Source: Squalus acanthias (taxonomy: Eukaryota). From it: a stretch of DNA of 64,000 nucleotides. Positions within the stretch are counted from its first letter, which is position 1; each line of letters begins with the position of its first letter. The DNA is taken from the NCBI GenBank assembly GCA_030390025.1, contig CM059432.1, forward strand, positions 10,664,001-10,728,000. Reading direction: 5' to 3'. The position numbers and the translations under genes are program-made. The notes under the pieces are model-generated. The model saw only the letters and a list, made by a program, of their open reading frames with translations. It was not told the origin of the DNA and did no database searches. This document shows positions 3,276 through 60,430 of this stretch, in pieces.

Positions 3276-3601
3276 ACAGAAAAAAAAAATTGCAGCGTCT
3301 ATACCAACCTACATAAACTACCGCAGCATAAAACATCACATGCACCATAGTTGAGAGAAGTGCAAAGGTACAGGACCACGACAATGGATAGTGTGGTGGG
3401 AGAAAAATACTAGAAACCACCTACAGAGGACACAACAAGAACAGTCCATCTAGTTCAGTCATCAAAAATTACGCATAATTTTACATGTACCAACTGTTTC
3501 TATTCTTCTACAAGCTGGACTTTGCGACATGCCACGGCCACGCATTTATAAAGAGGTTCCATCACACATTTCTCACTGGGAATGGTAGTGGTGGGGGAAA
3601 T

Positions 3602-47945: not shown

Positions 47946-49464
47946 TCGGACATCTTCCAAGCAGAGCAGATGATGCCCAGATTGCACGTGGAGTTAGGAA
48001 AGTACCAAGCTTGAATCCCTAATGTGTTACAATCGGCATCTGGAATTTCCGTGGGGCTTCTCCCAATCTCCTATCATAACCACGGTAGAAGATTGGCGCA
48101 AACCCCGGCGAATAGCCGTTTATTCAGTTTCTGCAAGGTCTCCGCTGATCTTGCACTAAAAGTACGGCGGTAGATTGGGAAAACTTCATGAAAATTCTAC
48201 CATCTAGTGAGTCTGTGCGCTGGGAGTGTATGCTCACTATATTGGTATGGTTTTTATTGGTATCTTGCCACACCACGTGTTATATTTGGACCTTTTATAT
48301 TTCAGAAAAAGACTTGTCTAAAACATGTTGGGGTCGAATTTCTACAGGGGTTCTCCTGAGCTCCTGCCATAACTTTGGTGAAAGATTGGCAGAGATCCTG
48401 GTGAATGGAGTGCGATGGAATACTCTCCACTTACTGCATGAGTTGCAGCTCCAACAACACTCAAGAAGCTCGACACCATCCAGGACAAAGCTGCCCACTT
48501 GATTGGCACCCCATCCACCACCTTAAACATTCACTCCCGCCACCACTGGTGCACCGTGGCTGCAGTGTGTAACATCTACAAGATGCACTGCAGCAACTCG
48601 CCAAGGCTTCTTCGGCAGCATCTCCCAAACCCGTGACCTCTTCCACCTAAAAGGACAAGGGCAGCGGGTGCATGGGAACACCACCATCTGCAAGCTCCCC
48701 TCCAAGTCGCACGCCTTCCTGACTTGGAAATATATCGGCCGTTCCTTCATCATCGCTGGGTTAAAATCCTGGAATTCCCTCCCGAACAGCACTGTGGGAG
48801 TACCTTCACCACACGGACTGCAGCGGTTCAAGAAGGCGGCTCACCACCACCTTCTCAAGGGCAACTAGGGATGGGCAATAAATGCTGGCCACACCAGTGA
48901 TGCCCACATCCCATGAACGAATTAAAAAATGAAATGGCATAAGTGACCGTACATTCCGTCTGGCCAGGGTTAGCACCGATCGTTTGTCGAAGTGAAGAGA
49001 TTGGGAGAACCCCTGTAGAAAATCTACCACACTGTCTATGCCCACAAAATACGGCACTCCTTTTAAACGCTGAAAACTCACAATCTCATGGATTCGGCAG
49101 ATGTCCTACATAATGATGGCACGAGGAACCTGGGGGCGCAGGTTGAAATTGGTCTTTGACAGTAACGCAAAGCAGGCAATAGCGAATCGCCAGTCTGTTT
49201 TACACAATGGAAAAGGAAGTCGGGCGGGGTGTAAAACGGGCTGCCTATTTGCTAGCACCCATTTTGTGCCATTGCCCAAGACCAATTTCACACACACCCA
49301 CCCCCCCCCCACCCCCACACCTCCACCCCGCCTCCCCATTGTATCAGAAATTAAGATATGTCAGAGAGCCTTTTAAAGTATTGACCCAGAATTTGCAGTG
49401 AGTAATAGCAGCAAACGAACAGCGCTCACTGTTATTACCCCTTTGAAACTGACCGCAACTTCAG

Positions 49465-50054
49465 GGACCTGGGTGTCCGTGTACATGAGTCACTGAAAGC
49501 GAATGTGCAGGTGCAGCAAGCCATTAGGAAGGCAAATGGTATGCTGGCCTTCATTACAAGAGGATTTGAGTACAGGAGTAAAGAAGTCTTACTCCAATTA
49601 TATAGGACCTTGGTGAGACCACACCTGGAGTACTGTGTACAATTTTGGTCTCCTTACCTAAGGAAGGATTTACTTGCCATAGAGGGAGTGCAACGAAGGT
49701 TCACAAGATTGATTCCTGAGATGGCGGGACTGTCGTATGAGAAGAGATTGAGTAAACTAGGCCTGTATTCTCTTGAATTCAGAAGAATGAGAGGGGATCT
49801 CATTGCAGCATACAAAATTATTACAGGGCTTGATAGGGTGGATGCTGGGAGAATGTTTCCCTTGGCTGGGGAGTCTAGAACCGGGGCCACAGCCTCAGGT
49901 TAAAGGGTAGGCCATTCAGGACTGAGATGAGAAGAAATTTCTTCACACAGAGGGTGGTGAATCTTTGGAATTCTCTACCCCAGAGGGCTGTGGAGACTCA
50001 GCCATTGGGTATATTCAAAACAGAAGTCGATAGATTTCTGACTAGTAAGGGCAT
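49465..50054 (+). mobile_element. CR1 3' fragment hosting the provirus; continues at 57309-57432
   Basis: ORF 49505..49903 (LVRPHLEYCVQFWSP); the CR1 tail resumes exactly after the GCAT TSD. Confidence 0.93.
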
Positions 50055-50626
50055 TGTGGAAATAAAATGGAGGAGTCACCATGTGTAAGAGATAGTGGTC
50101 ATAGGTAACCTCATCAGACACGGGTGAGGTCACTACAGACGCCAGTTAACAAACAATGGGACAAATTGTAGAATAGGATAAACTAATCATCAGGGCACAG
50201 ACCGAACATCTAAAAGGAACAAATGTGTAACCAAAGAGATGGGACAGATTATAGAATAGTATAAACCAGGAGGGAAAACCCCAGATAGCAGCGAGAACAT
50301 GGCAGCGAGAACCTGGCAGCGAGAACCTAGGAGCAACACTCGACAGCAGGGACCTGGTGACAGAAACCCTACGTAGAGGTTTGGACAGAGATTGATCACC
50401 TCGGACCAAATCGGGTAATATCGATATAAGTTGTGAGTCTTATATTTTGGAATTGTACTTTAAACTACGAACGGTGTTTGTTAAGCATTTATTAAAGATA
50501 AATCTTTGTACGCGAAATCTGTTGCATGTGTGTTTGTTCAGACCAAACTTACATTTGAACCCTAAAAGGAAAAATTGCGAACCTATTTGTTCGATCTTTC
50601 GAACATCTAGCGAATTCGGAGCAACA
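50055..50626 (+). repeat. 5' LTR (572 bp)
   Basis: Direct repeat of 56737-57308 with about 7 substitutions counted by eye; TATAAA near 50260; three 12-bp GCAGCGAGAAC repeats near 50288-50328; ATTAAA near 50491. Confidence 0.97.
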
Positions 50627-50628
50627 AT

Positions 50629-50647
50629 TGGCGGACCCAGATGGGAC
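50629..50647 (+). promoter_or_regulatory. Primer-binding site, tRNA-Arg(CCG)-type
   Basis: TGGCGGACCCAGATGGGAC, 2 nt after the LTR. Matches the complement of the vertebrate tRNA-Arg(CCG) 3' end as I recall it (TGGCGACCCAGATGGGAC), with one extra G. Confidence 0.8.
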
Positions 50648-50814
50648 TTTAGAACTTTGTTTTGGACAAAATATACCACAGTAAGGGGCTGAACAAGTGA
50701 CAGACAATATCTGTTAGAGTCGGATAAGGTATATCTGTTAGAGTCGGATAAGGTATAACAGTAAGGGTCTGAACAATATCTGTTAGAGTCAGATAAGGTT
50801 TTAAAGCAGTAACT

Positions 50815-52600
50815 ATGGTGGAACATGACGCGTCTAAAGGGGAGACCTCCCAGGATTGGGAAGAACAGTTTAACCAGTTAATGGTAGGAAAATATAAGGA
50901 CTGGGCGGTGACGATCGCCGGTCCAAGTTTCAAAGGAGGTCAGACCTTCTTTGAGCACAATAATAAAAAGGGAAAAATGAAACGAAAAAACTTTAAATAT
51001 TTTCTGATGGCAGCCTGTTACTCCGAACTAATGAGCGAGCGAGCATGAACACACAGTCAGGGTCAGACCCAAAACCAATTGCAGTCTGATTTAGACCAGC
51101 TCCGGAATCAGGTTAAAAATTTGCAAAAGGAAAATGAGGAATTACGTAGTGATCAAAGATTGCACCCTCTCCATGTGGCCTCCAGTGTGACTGCAGTCGA
51201 AGCAAGTCATCAAAAATTACACCGAATGCAGGAACAACTAGGCGAGTCCACAAGGGACTGCTGTGCCCTAGAGGAAAAATGTCAGGATTTGGAATCAGCC
51301 CTCAAGGTCATACAACAGTCTCACCAGCGGGAAAAATACGATAAAACGAATCATACCCACTGTCGTCAAGAAATAGAAGTATTAAAGTCACAATTATCCT
51401 CACACAAAGGCATAATATGCACTTTCTCCGACGGAAGCGGAGAGGGTATCGACTACTCAAGTCTGGCCAAGGCGCCCCAGAACTATGAGAGGGACCGATC
51501 AGGAGAAGGGGACTACGGCCCCCCCGACCCGTCATGGTACAATCCCCCGCCACCCTATAGAAATAATAAAGGTCCTACTGCCCCAGAGGATGGGCTTGCT
51601 GCCCCAGAGGAGCCGCCACCCCCACTACCCATGAACCCTATGGTCACTGTTCGGACACAGGAAAGGACCGACGGTCAAGTGGTAGACGCTGTGCCCAACG
51701 GACCCATCAATTATGCCACCCCTTTTACTCTCTCCCAGTTGAATGATATTGCCAAAAACGTACCCAAATTCGATGGCAAGATTAATTTTGAATTATGGAA
51801 GGCCGCGGTTCTCCAGGCCTCTGAGACTCAGGGACTAGATGAGGGAGAGCTGAGGAAACTAGTGACTTTGTGTTTGGGACCCGTTATATTCGGGGCCATG
51901 CCCCAAACCCAGAGAACAGGGCAGGGCACCATAGTTGAAATGTGGATCGCCATTAAGGAGGCGGCAGGAGTTAACAGCAAGGATCCCGTTATGGAACTAG
52001 CAAACTTTAAACGAAGAACACCCCCGCACTTATGCGGAACGCTTGTGGGTGGTTTTCTGTAACCTGATGGGAACATTGAACTGCGACAATCTGGATGATG
52101 GTCCTCGTGCCACCTGGTTTAAGTCCCTCATTTCCCATGCCTCCGATTCCGGTAAAAGGGCATGTAAGCTCTTCGACCCCACCGACGACACTCATAATGA
52201 GGCCTGGATCTTAAGGCGTATGACCAGGGCTTGGCCGGACGATCAAAATCAATCCTCTCCCCAACCAAAAGATAAAATCCACGCTTTCCGCTCAGGCCCA
52301 GATAGAAATGACCCACCAGCATGGAGGACTGAGAGATCTCCAAGGTATCCGGTAGCAAACCAGGGAGATAGGGGATATGGATCACTAAGGGGACCCTGTT
52401 ATAACTGCGGAAAGACGGGACATTGGCAAAGGGAGTGTCAGGCGCCAAAAAGAAGTAACCAGTCCGCGCTGTGGGATGCTCTGGGCGAATGGCACCCTTC
52501 CATGAGCAACCGGCACTCGAGCTCGGGGGCCAACAATGACGGGGTCCAACCTCGGAGGTCGTGTGCAAGGCAGGATGTGACAATCATGGACGGCCTATAG
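50815..52600 (+). pseudogene. gag: gag (coiled coil, PPPY/PTAP late domains, capsid-like PKFDG region, CCHC zinc knuckle), disrupted
   Basis: ORFs 50815 and 51079 share a frame across one TGA (51046-48); a frameshift near 52010-52045 leads into ORF 52043; CYNCGKTGHWQREC at 52397-52438. Confidence 0.9.
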
Positions 52601-53520
52601 TCTCAGGTGTCATAGGAGGTCGCGATACCACTTTTTTATGGGACACAGGCGGATCCAGAACGTGTCTGGGAAACCAGCACCCTCTCTCGCACAACGACTT
52701 AACTAATCAAGAAATTCTCCTTAGCGGCTTTACCGGTCATGGGCAGACCGCTACAATCACTAAGCCATTGGAGATTCAATTGGGAAGTTTCAAATTTAAG
52801 CATGCCTGCCTGTCGGTGCCACAGATGCAGGGGGAATCAGCAATAATTGGTATTGACTTCATGAGAATATATAATTTGGCTTATGACCCAGCAAACCGAT
52901 GTATTTGGAGAATGTGCGAAACTTGTGTTGACGGGTTAATACCCACGGGGACATATGACGCGCGCGTATGCTGCATGAAAACTTTTACTTTTGTTCCTTC
53001 TACCATAACAGACGACCCGGAAATACAGGATATTTTAACCCAAAACTCAAATGTTTTTGCCATCCACAAACACGAGTGTGGCCGGATGGCAGGACCGGTC
53101 TCAATCATAGGACCCGATCCCCCGCCCCAGGATCAGTATAAAATTCCCGTAGAGGCAGAAAAGGACTTAGACAATATTATTCACAGTCTCTTGAATCAAG
53201 GCGTGCTCTGACCCATTGCTTCTACCAATAACTCACCCATTTGGCCCATTCAAAAACCCAATAAGTCCTGGAGAATGACTATAGATTACCGAACTTTGAA
53301 TAAGGTTACGCCTTCCGTGGCACCCACTGTTGCCACTGCCTCAGAGACCACTTCAAAACTTTCCCCAACTGCGAAAATCTTTACTGTCCTGGACATCAGT
53401 AATGGATTTTGGTCCATACCCTTAACAAAAGAATGCCAGTACAAATTTGCTTTTACTCACAAGGGACAGCAGTACACTTGGACCCGGTTGCCTCAAGGTT
53501 TCCACAACAGCCCCTCGAAC
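52561..53520 (+). pseudogene. pol: pro-pol remnant: aspartic protease plus N-terminal half of RT
   Basis: WDTGGSRTC active site (DTG at 52642-50); NSPIWPIQKPNKSWRMTIDYRTLN; LDISNGFWSIPL; YTWTRLPQGFHNSP. In-frame TGA at 53209-11. Homology ends before YxDD; no RNase H or integrase core seen. Confidence 0.93.
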
Positions 53521-53651
53521 CCCGTCTTTAATCCGACCCGTCAACTGGACTAGAAACCATCCTCTACCCCCGCCCAGTCCAGGATGACCCAAACGGTTGC
53601 GTCGGGTATCAGAAAAGATAGAACTGTAAATAAGAGCAGTTGCTACCCTGA

Positions 53652-53670
53652 TCTTTCTTTTCCTTTCTAG
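53652..53670 (+). promoter_or_regulatory. Candidate env splice acceptor
   Basis: Polypyrimidine tract TCTTTCTTTTCCTTTCTAG ending 17 nt before the env ATG at 53688. Confidence 0.7.
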
Positions 53671-53687
53671 GTAACTGATTATTGCTC

Positions 53688-56681
53688 ATGGAAATCCCAG
53701 TACCCACCCTCCTGGGGTACTGTGGTCTGGTGTTTGGCTGTATCATCCTCGCTGAGAACTCAGATGTAACTATTACCGCAGACGGACGGAACAGTCAGAA
53801 CTGTGCCCAAGACAACAATGCAGGTTTTCACGCACCTACCAATGGCAACAACGAGTGCAGTTGTAGCAGCCAAGGAAAAACCTGCTATGAGACGGCAACT
53901 GAAACTCAACTGAACTTTGTGTGTATTGCTTGTACGGGAAAAGGTGTTCAGGCTATAGTATGGATAGCTATGCAGCACACAGGGGGCACCCATAGGGTTC
54001 TATTGGGGGCAACTCCTGTTGGTTCAGAGTATGAGATGAATTGTACTAAGATAGATAAACAACTGTGTTGCAACATAAGCAAGACAAGCACCTCCTTACA
54101 GATTATGGTGGGATGTAGCAGCAATTCAACTGTAAGAAACCTAATCAGTAATCCACGGAAGAGCTTAAAACCAACGTGCTCGTGTAAACACCAAGGAAAG
54201 CTAGTGGTTCAGGTATTACTGACACCTACTACCCCCGAGCCAACTACCCCACTCATTGTTCAGACCACCACCCCGATCCCTACCACCCCGGTTCCAGTTT
54301 GGGACTGCCCCGAACACGAGCCGGGACCCAAGGGAGGAGTAATATTAAGAAACACGACCAAAATTGTTTATGATAATATGCAATATGAATTAATACCTAT
54401 AGTGCTGAATATAATCGATGTACAATTGTCCGATTGGTGCCCGGAGGGAACCAAAAGATTGTATCAGGAATTGACTTCGATGTTGCTCAAGGGAGAGATA
54501 GGAGGGAAGCAGGGAAATGAAACAAAGACAGCTAGGAAAAGGAGGAAGAGAGGGTTACTGAATGATGCAGGGACAGTCTATGGAGCAGGAATGGCCACTG
54601 TAAATACTCTTGATATAACTAATTTGAACTCCAAGGTTAAAACTTTAACCCAGCAAGTCAAAACGTTATTGGAGGAACTGAATAATAATCAAAGACAAGA
54701 GTCACAGGCAGGACAGGAAAGTATAGGGATCCAAACACAACAGGTGAAGGTCTCAGATGGACATGCACGGACTATTAATCAACTTATTAACACGGCCAAA
54801 AAGGCGGCGAACGGAACCCAACAACAAACACTGTGCATGACTTATGGCAATTGGATGCTGGACCAGCTGAGAGAAAACTTAATGCTGGCAAAACGTGAAG
54901 AAGTACCCACTTGGATCAACAATACTCAAATCCGGGGTCTGATAAAGCAGAATGTTCCTGCTACTATCAGTGACTGCGAACTACGGAAACTCAGCAGGGT
55001 ATGGTTCAACGAGAAATGTACGGGCCCCCATGGAAGTACTGCTGTAGGGATGGTGATAGGAGTCCCCATGATAGGACACCAGGAAGGAATGCCATTATTT
55101 GAGGTCCAAACCATAGGCACTATATAAAAAGGAGCATGGGTGGCCGTGGCAGGAATGAGGCCATATGCTGTGAAGCAGAACGGTACTCTAGTGGGAGCTG
55201 CATTGGGACAATGTGCCACTACGGAAAGAACAGTAATATGCCCATCCAAAATTTACCCGACCAGCACCGCGCGATGCGGATTTAAGGGAAATACGGCCAT
55301 AAATTGTTCCTTGATCATGGAGAACGCGATTCACAAACCGAAGCGCTTATATGGGTGACGGAACATATTGGCCCAAAAATTCGGCCGAGAACGGGTGAGT
55401 ACTCAGTGCGTACTCACCATATTCATTCCCGAAGTGCCGGTTTCCTGCATGCACTGCGCATGCGCAGGAAACCGGCACTTCCGGTAAGGCGAAGGGGGCG
55501 GTTCCTAGGTGAACCGCGTGCGCACTAGAGGCTGCGCACACGCAGCACACTTAGGTTTTTTTTCAGCTTTCAACGCGAGGGTAAGTATGGAAGATTCTAC
55601 ACAAGTAAAAAGACCTCTTTTGAACAAGGTAAGTAGTTAATTAAGTATAATTTTTAATTTTTTTCAACAGGTTTATCTTTTTTAGAGACTTTAAAGAAAG
55701 GTAAGTTTATTTTTATAACTTTAAAAAAAAAAAAAATTTTTTCAAAAATTTAAATTTTTGTTTAAAGTGGTTAATTTATTTAACTATAGTTATTTTATTA
55801 ATGTGATGGTTTTTTTTTTAATTTATTTGAGGTTTAGCTGTTCTTTTGGGGCCTCTTTCAATTCACAGATTTGACAGGTCTCCTGTCAAATCTATGAATG
55901 AAAGATGGTCTGCTGCCATTGGCTCTCCATGGCCCACGTGATCCCAGGGGTCGCATCGCACTAACTGCGCCCCTGGGACATGCAAGCACTGCGCGCCGGC
56001 ACTAGGGAGAGGCCCAGGACCCGAAGTTCCTATTGGGGCAAACAAGGACGGCAGACGCGGTATGTGATATCGCGCGCGATCCTTACCCCCGCGGCAAGCC
56101 TCCGAGTCAAATTTCTGGGCCAATGTTTTACCACCACCGAAGCTAGTTACCATTATGGGAACAAGGACTGCCCTATCCAAAACCCAACCTTCTGCATGCA
56201 CCCCCTGATACCGATGAGAATAGGAAATGAGGAAATTATCAACATCCAGAGGCATGCAACTGTTAATCTTAATGTGTCAATAGACCTGAAGAATCGCTTG
56301 ACAGAATATTTCGCAAAAATCGACATCAACATCCAGCTAGAGGAAGAACATCTAACGGAAATTAGACATCAGCTTGATCTTGTTCATGAAATCTACGAAA
56401 GGGTGGAAATGAATACCCAGGACATTGACCAAAAGATTAAACAAATCAAAATCAATACTCGGTGGGACGACCTTTGGAATTGGGGCGAAAATGTGAACAT
56501 GCACCCCTGGGTGAGACTCGTGTCCCACCTGACTGTAATTATGATCATGCTGGTGTTCCAATGCCTATGCTTCACCTGGGTAAGCATGAAAAGACTAGAG
56601 AAAAGGCTGAAGGTTCGAGTGGAATCAATGGAAGCGTATCAGGCTTTACAAAGGACAAAGGACACACCCCGACGATGGTAA
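53688..56681 (+). pseudogene. env: env, class I fusion glycoprotein (~745 aa reconstructed), disrupted
   Basis: Signal peptide, Cys-rich domain, Thr/Pro stalk, RKRRKR furin site (54534-51), fusion peptide, heptad repeats, Trp-rich membrane-proximal region and TM. Lesions: TAA at 55125-27, an inferred frameshift near 55340, and a MITE at 55370-56121. Confidence 0.88.
55370..56121. mobile_element. Non-autonomous DNA transposon (MITE, probably PIF/Harbinger-like) inserted in env
   Basis: TIRs GGCCCAAAAATT / AATTTCTGGGCC; AT-rich core; removing it plus 3 bp (ATT/AAT flanks) restores GDGTYCFTTTEASYHYG. Confidence 0.85.
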
Positions 56682-56736
56682 ACAGCTTTATGGTGATCAA
56701 ATCATTTGGTCAAATGATAATGATCAAAGGGAGGAA

Positions 56737-57308
56737 TGTGGAAATAAAATGGAGGAGTCACCATGTGTAAGAGATAGTGGTCATAGGTAACCTCATCAGA
56801 CACGGGTGAGGTCACTACAGACGCCAGTTAACAAACAATGGGACAAATTGTAGAATAGGATAAACTAATCATCAGGGCGCAGACCGAACATCTAAAAGGA
56901 ACAAATGTGTAACCAAAGAGATGGGACAGATTATAGAATAGTATAAACCAGGAGGGAAAACCCCAGATAGCAGCGAGAACCTAGCAGCGAGAACCTGGCA
57001 GCGAGAACCTAGGAGCAACACTCGACAGCAGGGACCTGGGAACAGAAACCCTACGTAGAGGTTTGGACAGAGATTGATCACCTCGGACCAAATCGGGTAA
57101 TATCGATATAAGTTGTGAGTCTTATATTTTGGAATTGTACTTTAAACTACGAACGGTGTTTGTTAAGCATTTATTAAAGATAAATCTTGGTACGCGAAAT
57201 CTGTTGCCTGTGTGTTTGTTCAGACCAAACTTACATTTGAACCCTAAAAGGAAAAATTGCGAACCTATTTGTTCGATCTTTCGAACATCTAGCGAATTCG
57301 GAGCAACA
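56737..57308 (+). repeat. 3' LTR (572 bp)
   Basis: Direct repeat of the 5' LTR, immediately preceded by the polypurine tract AAAGGGAGGAA (56726-56736). Confidence 0.97.
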
Positions 57309-57516
57309 GCATCAAGGGATATGGCGATAGGGCCGGTGAATGGAGTTGAGGCAGAAGATCAGCCATGATCTCACTGAATGGCGGAGCAGGCTCGAAAGGC
57401 TGAATGGCCTGCTCCTGCTCCTATTATGTTCTTATTAGTCCAGCAGCAGGTTTGCAACAATGTACCAAGGACCATGACTTGACTGCCAATTACCAAATTG
57501 GTCTTCCTGTCTTTGT

Positions 57517-60430
57517 TTCTCGGTATCCTCCTCGCAGCACACACGCCCACCCAGCTTTGTGTCATCTGCAAACTTGGAGATATTACATTTAGTTCCCTTA
57601 TCTAGATCATTAATGTATATTGTGAATAGCTGGGGTCCAAGGACCGATCCCTGCGGTACCCCACTAGTCACTGCCTGCCACTCGAAAAAAGACTCATTAA
57701 TTCCTACTCTCTGCTTTATGTCCGCCAACCAGTTCTCTATCCAAGTCAATACCTTGCCCCCAATCCCATGTGCCTTAACTTTACACGCTAATCTCTTATG
57801 CGGGACCTTATCGAAAGCCTTTTGAAAGTCCAAATACACCACATCTACTGGTGCTCCCTTCTCTATTTTCCCAGTTACATCCTCAAAAAATTCCAGTAGA
57901 TTAGTCAAGCACGATTTACCTTTTGTAAATCCATGTTGACTTTGTCCGATCCTGTCACTGTTTTTCAAGTGCTCAGCTATTACATCCTTTATAATGGACT
58001 CTAGCATTTTCCCCACTACCGATGTCAGGCTTACCGGTCTGTAATTCCCCGCTTTCGCTCTACCACCCTTTTTGAATAGTGGGGTAACATTAGCTACCCT
58101 CCAATCCATGGGTACAGTTCCAGATTCCATCGAATGTTGGAAGATGATCAGCAATGCATCTACTATTTCTAGGACCACGTCCTTAAGTACCCTAGGATGT
58201 AGATTATCAGGCCCTGGGGATTTATCAGCCTTCAATCCCGTCAATTTCCCTAACACCATTTCCCTACAAATACTGATTTCTTTCAGTTCCTCCCTTTTAT
58301 CAGACCGTATGTTCTCCAACATCTCTGGGAGGTTATTTGTGTCCTCCTTTGTGAAGACAGAACCAAAATATGCATTTAATTGGTCTGCCATTTCTTTGTT
58401 CCCATTATAACTTCCCCCGCTTCTGACTGCAAGGGACCTACACTTGATTTCACTAATCTTTTTCTCTTCACATATCTATAAAAGCTCTTACAGTCAGTTT
58501 TTATGTTCCCTACAAGCTTACTTTCATATTCTATTTTCCCCTTCTTAATTAATCCCTTTGTCCTCCTTTGTTGAATCCTAAACTGCTGCCAATCCTCAGG
58601 GTTACCGCTTTTTCTGGCCAATTTATATGCCCTCTCCTTGGATCTTATGCTATCCCTAATTTCCCTTGTTAGCCACGGTTGAGTCACCCTTTTTGTTTTA
58701 TTCTTATGCCACACTAGGATGAACAAATTCTGTAGTTCATTCATGCAGCCTTTGAATGTTTGCCATTGCCTATCCACCGTCAACCCTTTGAGTGACATTC
58801 CCCAGTCAATCCTACCCAATTCGCGCCTCATACCATCGTAGTTTCCTTTATTTAAATTCAGGACCATAAATATTGAATACCCCTGGATGTTGAGTTCCCA
58901 GCCTTGGCCACCCTGGAGCCATGTTTCTGTAATCCCAATCAAATCGTATTCATTTACCACTATTTGCGCAGCTAATTCATCCACCTTGTTCCGAATGCTC
59001 CTTGCATTAAGACACAAAGCCTTCAGGCTTGTTTTTTTAACGCTCTCAGACCTATATGAATTATTATTTACTGTGACCATATTTGATTTAAACCGTTGAG
59101 TTCTTTGCCTTCTACTTTTGTTTTTCTCCTTCCTGTCTTTTGCTTTTATCCTTGTTTCCCTTTCCTCTGTCTCTCTGCTCAGGTTCCCAACCCCCTGCCA
59201 CTTTAGTTTAAACCCTCCCCAACAGCACGAGCAAGCACTCACCCTAGGACATCGGTCCCGGCCCTGCCCAGGTGCAGACCATCCCGTTTGTACTGGTCCC
59301 ACCTCCCCCAGAACCGGTTCCAATGTCCAAGGAATTTGAATCCCTCCCCCTTGCACCATTCCTCTAGCCACGTATTCATTTGAAATATCCTCCTATTTCT
59401 ACTCTGACTAGCACATGGCACTGGTAGCAATCTTGAGATTACTACCTCTGAGGTCCTATTTTTTAATTTACCTCCTAACTCCCTATATTCTGCTTTTAGG
59501 ACCTCATCCCGTTTTTTACCTATATCGTTGGTGCCTATGTGCACCACGACAACTGGCTGTTCGCCCTCCCCCTCCAAAATGTTCTGTAGCCGCTCAGAGA
59601 CGTCCTTGACCCTTGCACCAGGGAGGCAACACACCATCCTGGAGTCTCGTTTGCGGCCGCAGAAACGCCTATCTATTCCCCTTACAATTGAGTCCCCTAT
59701 CACTATAGCTCTTCCACACTTTTTCCTCCAAGCCTGTGCAGCAGAGCCACCCATGGTGCCAGGAAGTTGGCTGCTGCTGCCTTCCCCTGATAAGTCATCC
59801 CCCCCAACAGTATCCAAAGTGCCCTGGCCTGCTGAGTTTTTCCAGCGTTTTCTGTTGTTATTTCAGATTTCCAGCATCCGCAGTATTTTGCTATCCAAAG
59901 TGGTATATCTGTTTGAGAGGGGGATGGCCACAGGGGACCCTTGCACTACCTGCCTGCACCTCTTACTCTGCCTGGTGGTCACCCATTCACTTCCTGCCTG
60001 TACACCCTTTACCTGCAGTGTGACCAACTCGCTAAACGTGCTATCCACGACGTTTACAGCGTCGTGAATGCTCCAATATGCATCCATCCGCAGCTCCAGA
60101 GCCGCAATGCGGTCTATCAGTAGCTGCAGCTGGATACACTTCCCACACACATGGTCGTCAGGGACACAGGAAGTGTCCCTGATTTACCACATATAGCAGG
60201 AGGAGCATATCACGGGGCGGAGCTCTCCTGCCATGACTTACCCTTTAATTAATTAATTTAAATTAAATTAAATGAATCCCACCAATTTCACTTCAATTAA
60301 ATGATATACTCAAGGGCCCTTTCTTAACAGTAGTCCCCGCTACACAACAGAGACCCTAGAAACCGCAAAATTTTAAGTTTAGAAAAATTTAGAAGGAAAA
60401 TACTCACCAACCAATCACTTACCTGCTTCT
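57517..60430 (-). mobile_element. Long CR1 LINE with ORF1 (Cys motif plus SGNH esterase) and partial ORF2 (APE with internal deletion, RT); 3' part missing
   Basis: ORF 59239..59817 (IVIGDSIVRG...VVHIGTNDIG); ORF 58376..59371 (LNARSIRNK, GITETWL); ORF 57435..58391 (YRPVSLTS, DFQKAFD, GVPQGSVLGP, FADD). Confidence 0.95.

Follow-up and report, generated by a model that had tools for sequence, protein, structure and literature searches.

A defective shark provirus of a deep retroviral lineage, with an envelope protein predicted to fold like paramyxovirus fusion proteins

Envelope proteins (Env) of the fusion (F) type have been recognized by sequence in lokiretroviruses (PMC7947760) and by solved structures in foamy viruses (PMC11468914), and they are common in errantiviruses (PMC13524379); the Viro3D paper also speaks of F-like glycoproteins in reverse-transcribing viruses, which are not named in the part of it that we consulted. 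Lokiretroviruses (Loki) were looked for by Wang and Han (2020, PMC7947760) in six chondrichthyan genomes and found in none of them (Fig. S1), and their Env reportedly matches the Pfam family PF00523 at 2.2e-7. The paper asks whether the common ancestor of retroviruses had an F-type Env, the first of four scenarios. For the foamy-like endogenous retroviruses (FLERVs), Aiewsakun and Katzourakis (PMC5512871) nest a frog FLERV among ghostshark FLERVs, with only pol recognizable. Here, we describe a provirus at positions 50055..57308 of a 64,000-nucleotide stretch of Squalus acanthias DNA (contig CM059432.1 of assembly GCA_030390025.1), hereafter the window; all features lie on its plus strand unless stated otherwise. 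We consider, with a probability of about 80%, that this provirus is a dead, deleted copy from a multi-copy family of crown Retroviridae, that this family has a class I Env of the F type, and that the copy belongs to a pol-deleted form mobilized in trans.

An earlier note, made from the sequence alone, had read the locus as a young lokiretrovirus-like provirus and had called for a phylogeny of its reverse transcriptase (RT). We ran this phylogeny on the RT of a sibling copy, and the element fell in the crown, not in the Loki-type clade. Three trees were rooted on chromodomain and plant gypsy elements, i.e., a quick one of 105 rows and two careful ones, of 66 rows (LG+C20 PMSF) and of 64 rows, the latter including 13 exogenous isolates from IMG/VR; rows were picked by query coverage, and the smaller trees were thinned by hand, mostly within gamma-like clades. 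In the 66- and 64-row trees, the element lies inside the crown Retroviridae clade with supports of 100/100 (ultrafast bootstrap/Shimodaira-Hasegawa-like approximate likelihood ratio test, UFBoot/SH-aLRT), and in all three trees the Loki-type rows are sister to the clade formed by the element and every other retrovirus. The branch separating the crown from the Loki-type rows measures 0.9 changes per site and is also supported at 100/100 in the careful trees. The element's own clade of 11 rows receives 88/92 in the 66-row tree and 86/93 in the 64-row tree. In approximately unbiased (AU) tests, a tree constrained to unite these 11 rows with the Loki-type rows is worse by 39.7 log-likelihood units (p-AU 0.0007), and their union with the foamy/foamy-like group is rejected as well (p 0.003). 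The other branches at the base of the crown are an exogenous isolate of 10,688 nt (locus L064), a class II group, a turtle pair, two foamy-like groups (one with a Heterodontus protein), the foamy clade, and an epsilon-plus-gamma clade (99/99), which excludes the element in the 64-row tree. A quick integrase tree places the element in a 33-row clade (SH-aLRT 97) with epsilon, gamma and fish sequences, apart from a 15-row foamy clade.

The RT motifs point the same way. The element reads LPQGF (...RLPQGFHNSP), versus PFGY in the printed Loki rows (...CPFGY.NSPA.FNIFLHKAMPD...), which run, in the portion of the PMC7947760 supplement at hand, ...QYKLAFSF..G.RQYTWNRCPFGY.NSPA.FNIFLHKAMPD...GAKLSL.KGQWC. 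Among the sequences inspected, an eel protein (P0023) carries this Loki signature and groups with P0036 and P0033; four peptides of the element's clade were not found in that same portion of the supplement. A protein search with the protease-RT (PR-RT) frame of a sibling returned 162 proteins at E <= 1e-10, and among the best 120 of them the closest over PR, RT and tether, at 42-43% identity, come from the frogs Aquarana and Rhinophrynus under the name "NYNRIN-like", which in these pol matches is an annotation label only. They are followed by proteins of Xenopus and Latimeria and by metagenome or run-assembly proteins, and simian foamy Pol stands at 31%. Against solved structures, PR-RT scores highest with foamy enzymes (232 bits), then with murine leukemia virus (MLV)/XMRV RT (212), Ty3 (133) and HIV (63-76), and the earlier description of the enzymes as foamy-like thus agrees with this search; the integrase region scores best with Ty3 (150 bits) and with prototype foamy integrase (134). 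The family is a lineage of crown Retroviridae whose pol is nearest to that of frogs and coelacanth, and none of the foamy, epsilon and gamma clades includes it. The alternative that the earlier note had kept, a new env-bearing lineage near the retrovirus root, stands insofar as the lineage is distinct and deep, and fails insofar as it branches within the polytomous base of the crown and not outside it.

The second pillar of our reading is Env. In the window, env is split in two parts, 53688..55370 (signal peptide, variable head, F2-like strand region, heptad repeat A (HRA) and the first portion of the globular domains) and 56124..56681 (the rest of the globular domains and the tail, with the TAA stop at 56679-56681). 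The protein is predicted to run from a signal peptide and a head through a Pro/Thr-rich linker (54222-54299), an F2-like strand, a putative furin-type cleavage site RKRRKR (54534-54551), a fusion-peptide-like hydrophobic stretch (54552-54611), HRA, globular domains, heptad repeat B (HRB, 56337-56459) and a membrane span (56520-56582) to the tail. At the sequence level, Pfam names no family in the Env of the window or of the sibling frames, where a weak Baculo_F match (E 0.004) was seen, and none of the 47 Env sequences compared matches the Pfam families of foamy Env or of gamma-type transmembrane (TM) subunits. Compared by sequence with solved structures, Env gave one unrelated match at E 2.2, and its profile gave mostly noise of the coiled-coil type. 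A word-index protein search recovered no Env relatives, either with a 471-residue frame or with a 32-sequence alignment; an exhaustive search of a representative library found 46. The ten that were looked up include five sharks (Mustelus, Chiloscyllium, Heptranchias, Heterodontus and Pristiophorus), and relatives are also present in the frogs Pelodytes and Mantella, one Mantella cluster having 16 members. On the basis of these named relatives, the five sharks and two frogs, the host genome is of the cartilaginous-fish type, in line with the chondrichthyan host that had been proposed.

The fold was modeled with AlphaFold from a 44-sequence alignment, the target being a stop-free frame of the same genome. 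The mean confidence (predicted local distance difference test, pLDDT) is 64.8 and reaches 85-96 over residues 200-270 and 370-600; a fold computed from the single sequence was unusable (pLDDT 34.4) and was discarded. With this model, the top 50 rows of a Foldseek search of the PDB are all F proteins of paramyxo- or pneumoviruses (best E 1.3e-10; 226 matches at E <= 0.001). VIA-align superposes 289-333 residues on F at Z 10-13.1, model residues 214-603 facing F residues 26-433. A search of 48161 chains that was independent of Foldseek gave nine matches at Z >= 8, all of them F proteins, and foamy Env reached Z 7.7 (8rm0) and 7.4 (8rm1). Among the predicted viral structures of BFVD, the model meets the Env of walleye epidermal hyperplasia virus 1 (WEHV-1, E 1e-13), that of walleye dermal sarcoma virus (WDSV, E 1.1e-10) and feline foamy gp130 (E 4.8e-6), as well as baculovirus F and many glycoproteins of Mononegavirales and chu-like viruses. 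The model thus assigns Env to the class I fusion proteins of the paramyxo/pneumovirus-F type, as the fusion-protein layout recognized in the earlier note had suggested.

Profile comparisons point to a link by sequence. With hhalign, the Env profile of the family aligns to the Env of a 12,708-nt exogenous isolate with a probability of 96.8% (E 2.5e-10, 447 columns) and to that of the 10,688-nt isolate with 84.9% (E 6.5e-6); the values for simian foamy Env (12.9%) and MLV-type Env (13.3%) are not significant. The 12,708-nt isolate belongs to the epsilon clade in the RT tree, and its env is followed by a cyclin-like open reading frame (ORF), with Cyclin_N at E 8.4e-5, just under the cut-off; we take the isolate to be WDSV. 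Judged from these profiles, Env is a distant sequence homologue of the walleye-type epsilonretrovirus Env. The N-terminal head may be a beta sandwich of the immunoglobulin (Ig)-like or zona-pellucida ZP-N-like kind: model residues 56-180 (about 53850-54230 in the window) resemble such domains at Z 5.4-5.7 with a low pLDDT, one Env relative matches Pfam V-set, and one is named Ig-like.

The same genome contains further Env families, at 45-60% and at 35-39% identity to that of the element (e.g., loci L051-L056), several of them with long stop-free frames: six of the ten listed matches of the 35-39% family are free of stops, and so is one of the four near-full-length matches of the element's own family. 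Since these further families belong to the same F-type superfamily, the genome holds several related retroviral lineages.

The third part of our reading concerns the history of the copy. We compared the window provirus with 10 other copies from the same 3.71-Gb assembly. Four of them (L012, L013, L015 and L018) hold 2917-3185 extra bases at one point of pol (element positions 3462/3456), and this comparison places the junction of a deletion of about 2.9 kb, with 7 bases of microhomology, at 53510..53516. The deletion takes out the 3' part of RT, the tether, RNase H and integrase. A PR-RT DNA search with 40 scored candidates shows the same junction at 11 further places (C9, with two adjacent places, C1692, C1, C5, C4, C1945, with four, and C504). 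Because other loci carry it, the deletion predates the integration of the window copy, which was therefore non-autonomous when it integrated. The deletion arose before integration, probably by template switching at the microhomology, and the copy would have been integrated with RT and integrase supplied in trans by full-length siblings. Other internal deletions occur in L022, L011, L014, L016, L017, L019 and L020, for instance one with gag fused in frame to integrase and one with 1.1-1.2 kb of pol remaining; derivatives that keep env seem common in the family.

The lesions that are private to the window copy would have come after integration: the loss of 8 bases from gag, two stop codons and a transposon within env. 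The latter (55371..56123) is non-autonomous, measures 753 bp, bears terminal inverted repeats of about 13 bases and is absent from all nine copies covering the site and from contigs that connect 55368 to 56124; its own family is very abundant, with 6236 first-look candidates, and the 40 that were scored are all full length at 91-100% identity. With a gag stop, a gag frameshift, a pro stop, the loss of 2.9 kb of pol and the transposon in env, the window copy is dead. The two long terminal repeats (LTRs) are identical at 565 of 572 positions, a distance of 0.0123 (Kimura two-parameter), which corresponds to an age of about 28 My at a rate of 2.2e-10, the value assumed by Han for the elephant shark (PMC4422223). 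"Young" is therefore relative. The family is multi-copy, and long open frames persist in some of its copies. In a second copy, the LTRs differ at 15 of 574 positions. The search of the genome with the LTR, which had been recommended, gave at least 78 matches from 184 candidates; PR-RT DNA gave at least 48 from 1401, and the Env protein at least 73 from 11341, all of these counts being lower bounds.

A full-length sibling measures about 9.4 kb. In the natural frames of two copies, sibling pol shows the Pfam domains RVP, RVT_1, RT_RNaseH_2/RT_RNaseH, RNase_H, Integrase_H2C2 and rve. Pfam recognizes the integrase by H2C2 (E 8.8e-19) and by its core (E 1.9e-17) and finds no MLVIN_C in it. RNase H is dual, with a degenerate tether RNase H of the gypsy type and a second one (PF00075, E 5.9e-18) on a natural frame of 969 residues. 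In 8 of the 11 copies examined, the end of gag lies in the +1 frame relative to pro (i.e., pro is offset by -1) with an overlap of about 60 bases, and Pro-Pol would be read in the -1 frame, probably by ribosomal frameshifting. The Gag of the family resembles those of the two exogenous isolates at the coiled-coil level (E 0.002) or not at all.

The provirus itself has a retroviral layout, with LTRs, a tRNA primer-binding site (PBS), a polypurine tract (PPT), a short target-site duplication (TSD) and the order gag-pro-pol-env, and we could confirm the order LTR-gag-pro-RT-env-LTR of the earlier note from the LTR pair, the ORFs and Pfam. The LTRs, of 572 bp each, lie at 50055..50626 and 56737..57308, match without gaps, and both begin with TG and end with CA; they would provide the promoter and polyadenylation signals. 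A 4-bp TSD, GCAT, flanks the insertion at 50051..50054 and 57309..57312. It had been noted before, and contigs from public runs, in which the flanking repeat is unbroken, connect 50050 to 57309 with the four letters shared, which confirms both the ends of the insertion and the duplication. We rejected these contigs as signs of an empty allele or insertion polymorphism, since the flanking repeat is very abundant and they derive from its other copies. In the primer-site region, TGGCGGACCCAGATGGGAC begins two bases 3' of the 5' LTR. The Arg-type PBS (50629..50647) proved to be the complement of the 3' end plus CCA of a tRNA-Arg(CCG) of the same genome, apart from one extra G; no tRNA exactly complementary to it was found in the genome, even when one mismatch was allowed. 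The predicted PPT, AAAGGGAGGAA, was also borne out, directly 5' of the 3' LTR (56726..56736). From their sequences, PBS and PPT would prime the two DNA strands.

In the window, gag is broken (50815..52600, from ORFs and Pfam). It encodes a coiled-coil region, visible as weak Pfam matches of the coiled-coil type in the N-terminal part, a proline-rich stretch and a capsid-like part in which PKFDG lies at 51763-51777; a single CCHC knuckle occupies 52397-52438 (zf-CCHC, E 1.9e-7). This is the non-foamy Gag that had been described. The gene is interrupted by an in-frame TGA (51046-51048) and by the 8-base frameshifting deletion near 52010, which the comparison with other copies, and for the deletion also with contigs, shows to be private. 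Pro and the 5' part of RT follow at 52540..53516, in frame -1 relative to the gag end and with an overlap of 61 bases. The protease carries WDTGGSRTC (RVP, E 1.6e-5), its active site LWDTGG lying at 52636-52653, and the RT fragment (about 53116 to 53516; RVT_1, E 1.8e-17) carries LDISNGFW...TRLPQGFHNSP. The private TGA at 53209-53211 is a sense codon in other copies and in run contigs. Between the env stop and the 3' LTR, there are only 55 bases (56682-56736), and thus, as had been claimed, no room for tas/bet.

Several observations weigh against our reading and have to be set beside the evidence for it. The F-type Env is a matter of fold, and this fold is a prediction, with low confidence over residues 1-200. 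No F match exists at the sequence level: PF00523 is absent from the window env frames (E <= 1), from the sibling frames (E <= 0.1) and from all 47 relatives (E <= 0.01), and the profile found no solved F protein. In RT, the crown base is a seven-branch polytomy, within which the lineage may be nearer to foamy-like, epsilon-like or class II viruses. The foamy/foamy-like group of the AU test was defined after seeing the tree and has a support of 67/70; the Loki-type clade was named by motif match to printed rows and not by labelled sequences in the tree; and the trees contain no labelled SnRV, ERV-L, alpha-, beta-, delta- or lentiviruses, CmiFLERV, XtrFLERV or CEFV. The RT, integrase and Env evidence is a composite from different siblings, the window copy being devoid of most of pol. 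The PBS is imperfect by its extra base, and another copy differs from it at three further positions. A canonical slippery heptamer is not visible in the gag-pro overlap. Finally, some of the places that share the pol junction are clustered and could be duplications, and mobilization in trans is the most likely, inferred, course of events.

The rival readings must account for the same data. The element could be foamy-like in the broad sense of Spumaretrovirinae, i.e., the same as the pol-only CmiFLERV/XtrFLERV or as a cartilaginous-fish endogenous foamy virus. Foamy enzymes are indeed its best solved PR-RT relatives, the foamy Env core is F-like too (PMC11468914, in the part seen; Z 7.7), and the pol-only FLERVs, as presented in the accessible text of PMC5512871, fit a shark-and-frog lineage with non-foamy gag and env, with which the element's lineage may be identical. 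We nevertheless hold this reading to be unlikely, as the RT union is rejected (p 0.003), the integrase stands apart from the foamy clade in the quick tree, Gag has a CCHC knuckle (E 1.9e-7), no Pfam foamy Gag or Env is matched, no space for accessory genes is left 3' of env, gag and pro overlap in -1 where foamy viruses have a separate Pol start, and the hhalign probability to simian foamy Env is 12.9%. Foamy Gag is devoid of a Cys-His knuckle. A J Virol paper of 2023 on a cartilaginous-fish endogenous foamy virus may already describe the element's family. An element of the epsilonretrovirus group, or a recombinant with an epsilon-type env, would explain the homology of Env with the walleye-type Env, the integrase identity of 40.6% and the single CCHC knuckle of both Gags. 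It would not explain why RT is shut out of the epsilon-plus-gamma clade (99/99), why the integrase has no MLVIN_C, which the epsilon isolate possesses, why gag and pro are in different frames when gag and pol share one in that isolate, or why there are neither cyclin-type accessory genes nor any similarity between the Gags; this makes the epsilon reading quite improbable.

That the element is a lokiretroviral one, sister to all other retroviruses and with a Mononegavirales-F-like Env, is in our view extremely improbable. It is favored by an Env that is F-like by predicted fold, as Loki Env is by sequence (PMC7947760, sections consulted), by the dual RNase H of the sibling, and by nearest pol matches in Loki-bearing host groups, the frogs and the coelacanth. 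The RT motif is nevertheless LPQGF and not PFGY, the element sits in the crown at 100/100 with the PFGY-bearing sequences outside it, the AU test gives p 0.0007, and Env lacks the PF00523 match reported for Loki Env (2.2e-7). Moreover, an F-type Env is also present in epsilon- and foamy retroviruses (PMC11468914, as far as consulted), and is therefore not diagnostic of Loki. There is, lastly, next to no chance that we are dealing with an env-bearing Ty3/gypsy element of the errantivirus-like kind and not with a retrovirus. Errantiviruses commonly have an F-type Env according to the accessible part of PMC13524379, there is the weak Baculo_F match (E 0.004) and Ty3 comes top among solved integrases; but branches with 100/100 support stand between the gypsy rows and the crown retrovirus clade, to which RT belongs, an additional RNase H domain is present, and the Ty3 RT score is far under those of foamy and MLV RT. 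We thus retain a crown retroviral family with an F-type Env as the reading of this locus.

The surroundings call for a few remarks. A LINE-type reverse-transcriptase repeat (49409-50054 and 57309-57360) harbors the provirus in its 3' part; over this repeat, the summed word depth of contigs amounts to millions in four runs. Just downstream, the minus strand (57435-58475) carries another LINE RT frame, 346 residues long. The tRNA T-arm/acceptor motif has 101 matches, most of them in one cluster of 0.3 Mb (G000:C27, about 20.86-21.18 Mb); two sampled members resemble tRNA-Arg(CCT) with altered anticodons (TTT and CTA), and the cluster may be a tRNA-derived repeat array. In runs X6-X14, labelled as other organisms (B-H), 33-42% of the sampled words are present, and contigs of X8 differ from the provirus interior at 1-2 positions over 166-266 bases, so that either related species hold near-identical members of the family or the labels stand for close relatives. 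The low-depth contigs of run X16, which is only guessed to be RNA, were rejected as evidence of transcription.

As to the meaning of these results, the claim of a first lokiretrovirus in cartilaginous fish falls. In its place stands the full anatomy of a deep shark retroviral lineage, which is closest in pol to sequences of frogs and coelacanth and may be one that earlier surveys saw only via pol. The family, with its many copies, its deletion derivatives apparently spread in trans and some long frames, suits the study of retroviral activity in sharks. An F-type Env is now indicated, beside Loki and foamy viruses, in walleye epsilonretroviruses and in the element's lineage, by fold and partly by profile. 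This distribution fits the ancestral-F scenario as set out in the consulted sections of PMC7947760; it is no proof of it, and repeated capture is possible. Among the papers listed by one full-text literature search, only that paper touches on all sides of a link between epsilonretrovirus Env and paramyxovirus F. One can go further and regard the lineage as a branch of genus rank that is undescribed, was active recently and arises at the crown's base, with an Env that would link those of Loki, foamy viruses, epsilonretroviruses and itself as homologous F-type proteins. We put this forward tentatively and think it rather doubtful. If it were true, the ancestral retroviral Env would be of the F type (scenario 1 of PMC7947760), and the short gamma-type and lentiviral TM subunits would be later reductions or replacements.

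As an object, the window provirus is of an ordinary kind, one more defective endogenous retrovirus; the deep lineage from which it stems is poorly described, and its Env is informative. Lokiretroviruses share with it the LTR-gag-pol-env layout, the dual RNase H, an F-like Env with a furin-type site and overlapping host groups of the nearest relatives; they differ by their RT motif and tree position, by the sequence match of their Env to PF00523, and by their absence from the six chondrichthyan genomes screened. With foamy viruses and FLERVs, the element shares its best solved PR-RT match, an F-type Env core and, for the basal FLERVs, a shark-plus-frog distribution (PMC5512871 and PMC11468914, in the parts at hand). 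Unlike it, foamy viruses have an accessory region, a Gag without CCHC knuckle, and RT and integrase in a clade of their own; their Env fits that of the element less well than F proteins do (Z 7.7 versus 10-11.5), and the extra module, N-terminal in the element's Env, lies between the subunits in foamy Env. The walleye epsilonretroviruses (WDSV, WEHV-1) have an Env that is homologous at the profile level and has a similar predicted fold, one CCHC knuckle in Gag, and, in the walleye-type virus, the integrase most identical to that of the element among the exogenous isolates compared (40.6%). They depart from it by an RT in the epsilon-plus-gamma clade, by MLVIN_C, by gag and pol in the same frame, by accessory cyclin genes and by an Env of about 1160-1320 residues, versus about 745 in the element. 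The 10,688-nt isolate of IMG/VR has the most similar RT among the isolates (46.8% identity), a Gag with coiled coil and CCHC knuckle, and a weak Env profile match; it falls outside the element's RT clade and has gag and pol in one frame, MLVIN_C, an Env of 1134 residues and an extra 3' ORF. Finally, the F proteins of paramyxo- and pneumoviruses (parainfluenza virus 5, 2b9b; human parainfluenza virus 3, 1ztm; respiratory syncytial virus, 3rki; Newcastle disease virus, 3maw) differ from the element's Env in sequence, with 9-16% identity and no profile-level match, and the latter is encoded by a retrovirus and has about 200 extra N-terminal residues, including the Pro/Thr-rich linker. The two nevertheless share their domain order from the F2-like strand to the membrane span, and the predicted match of fold extends over nearly the whole F ectodomain.

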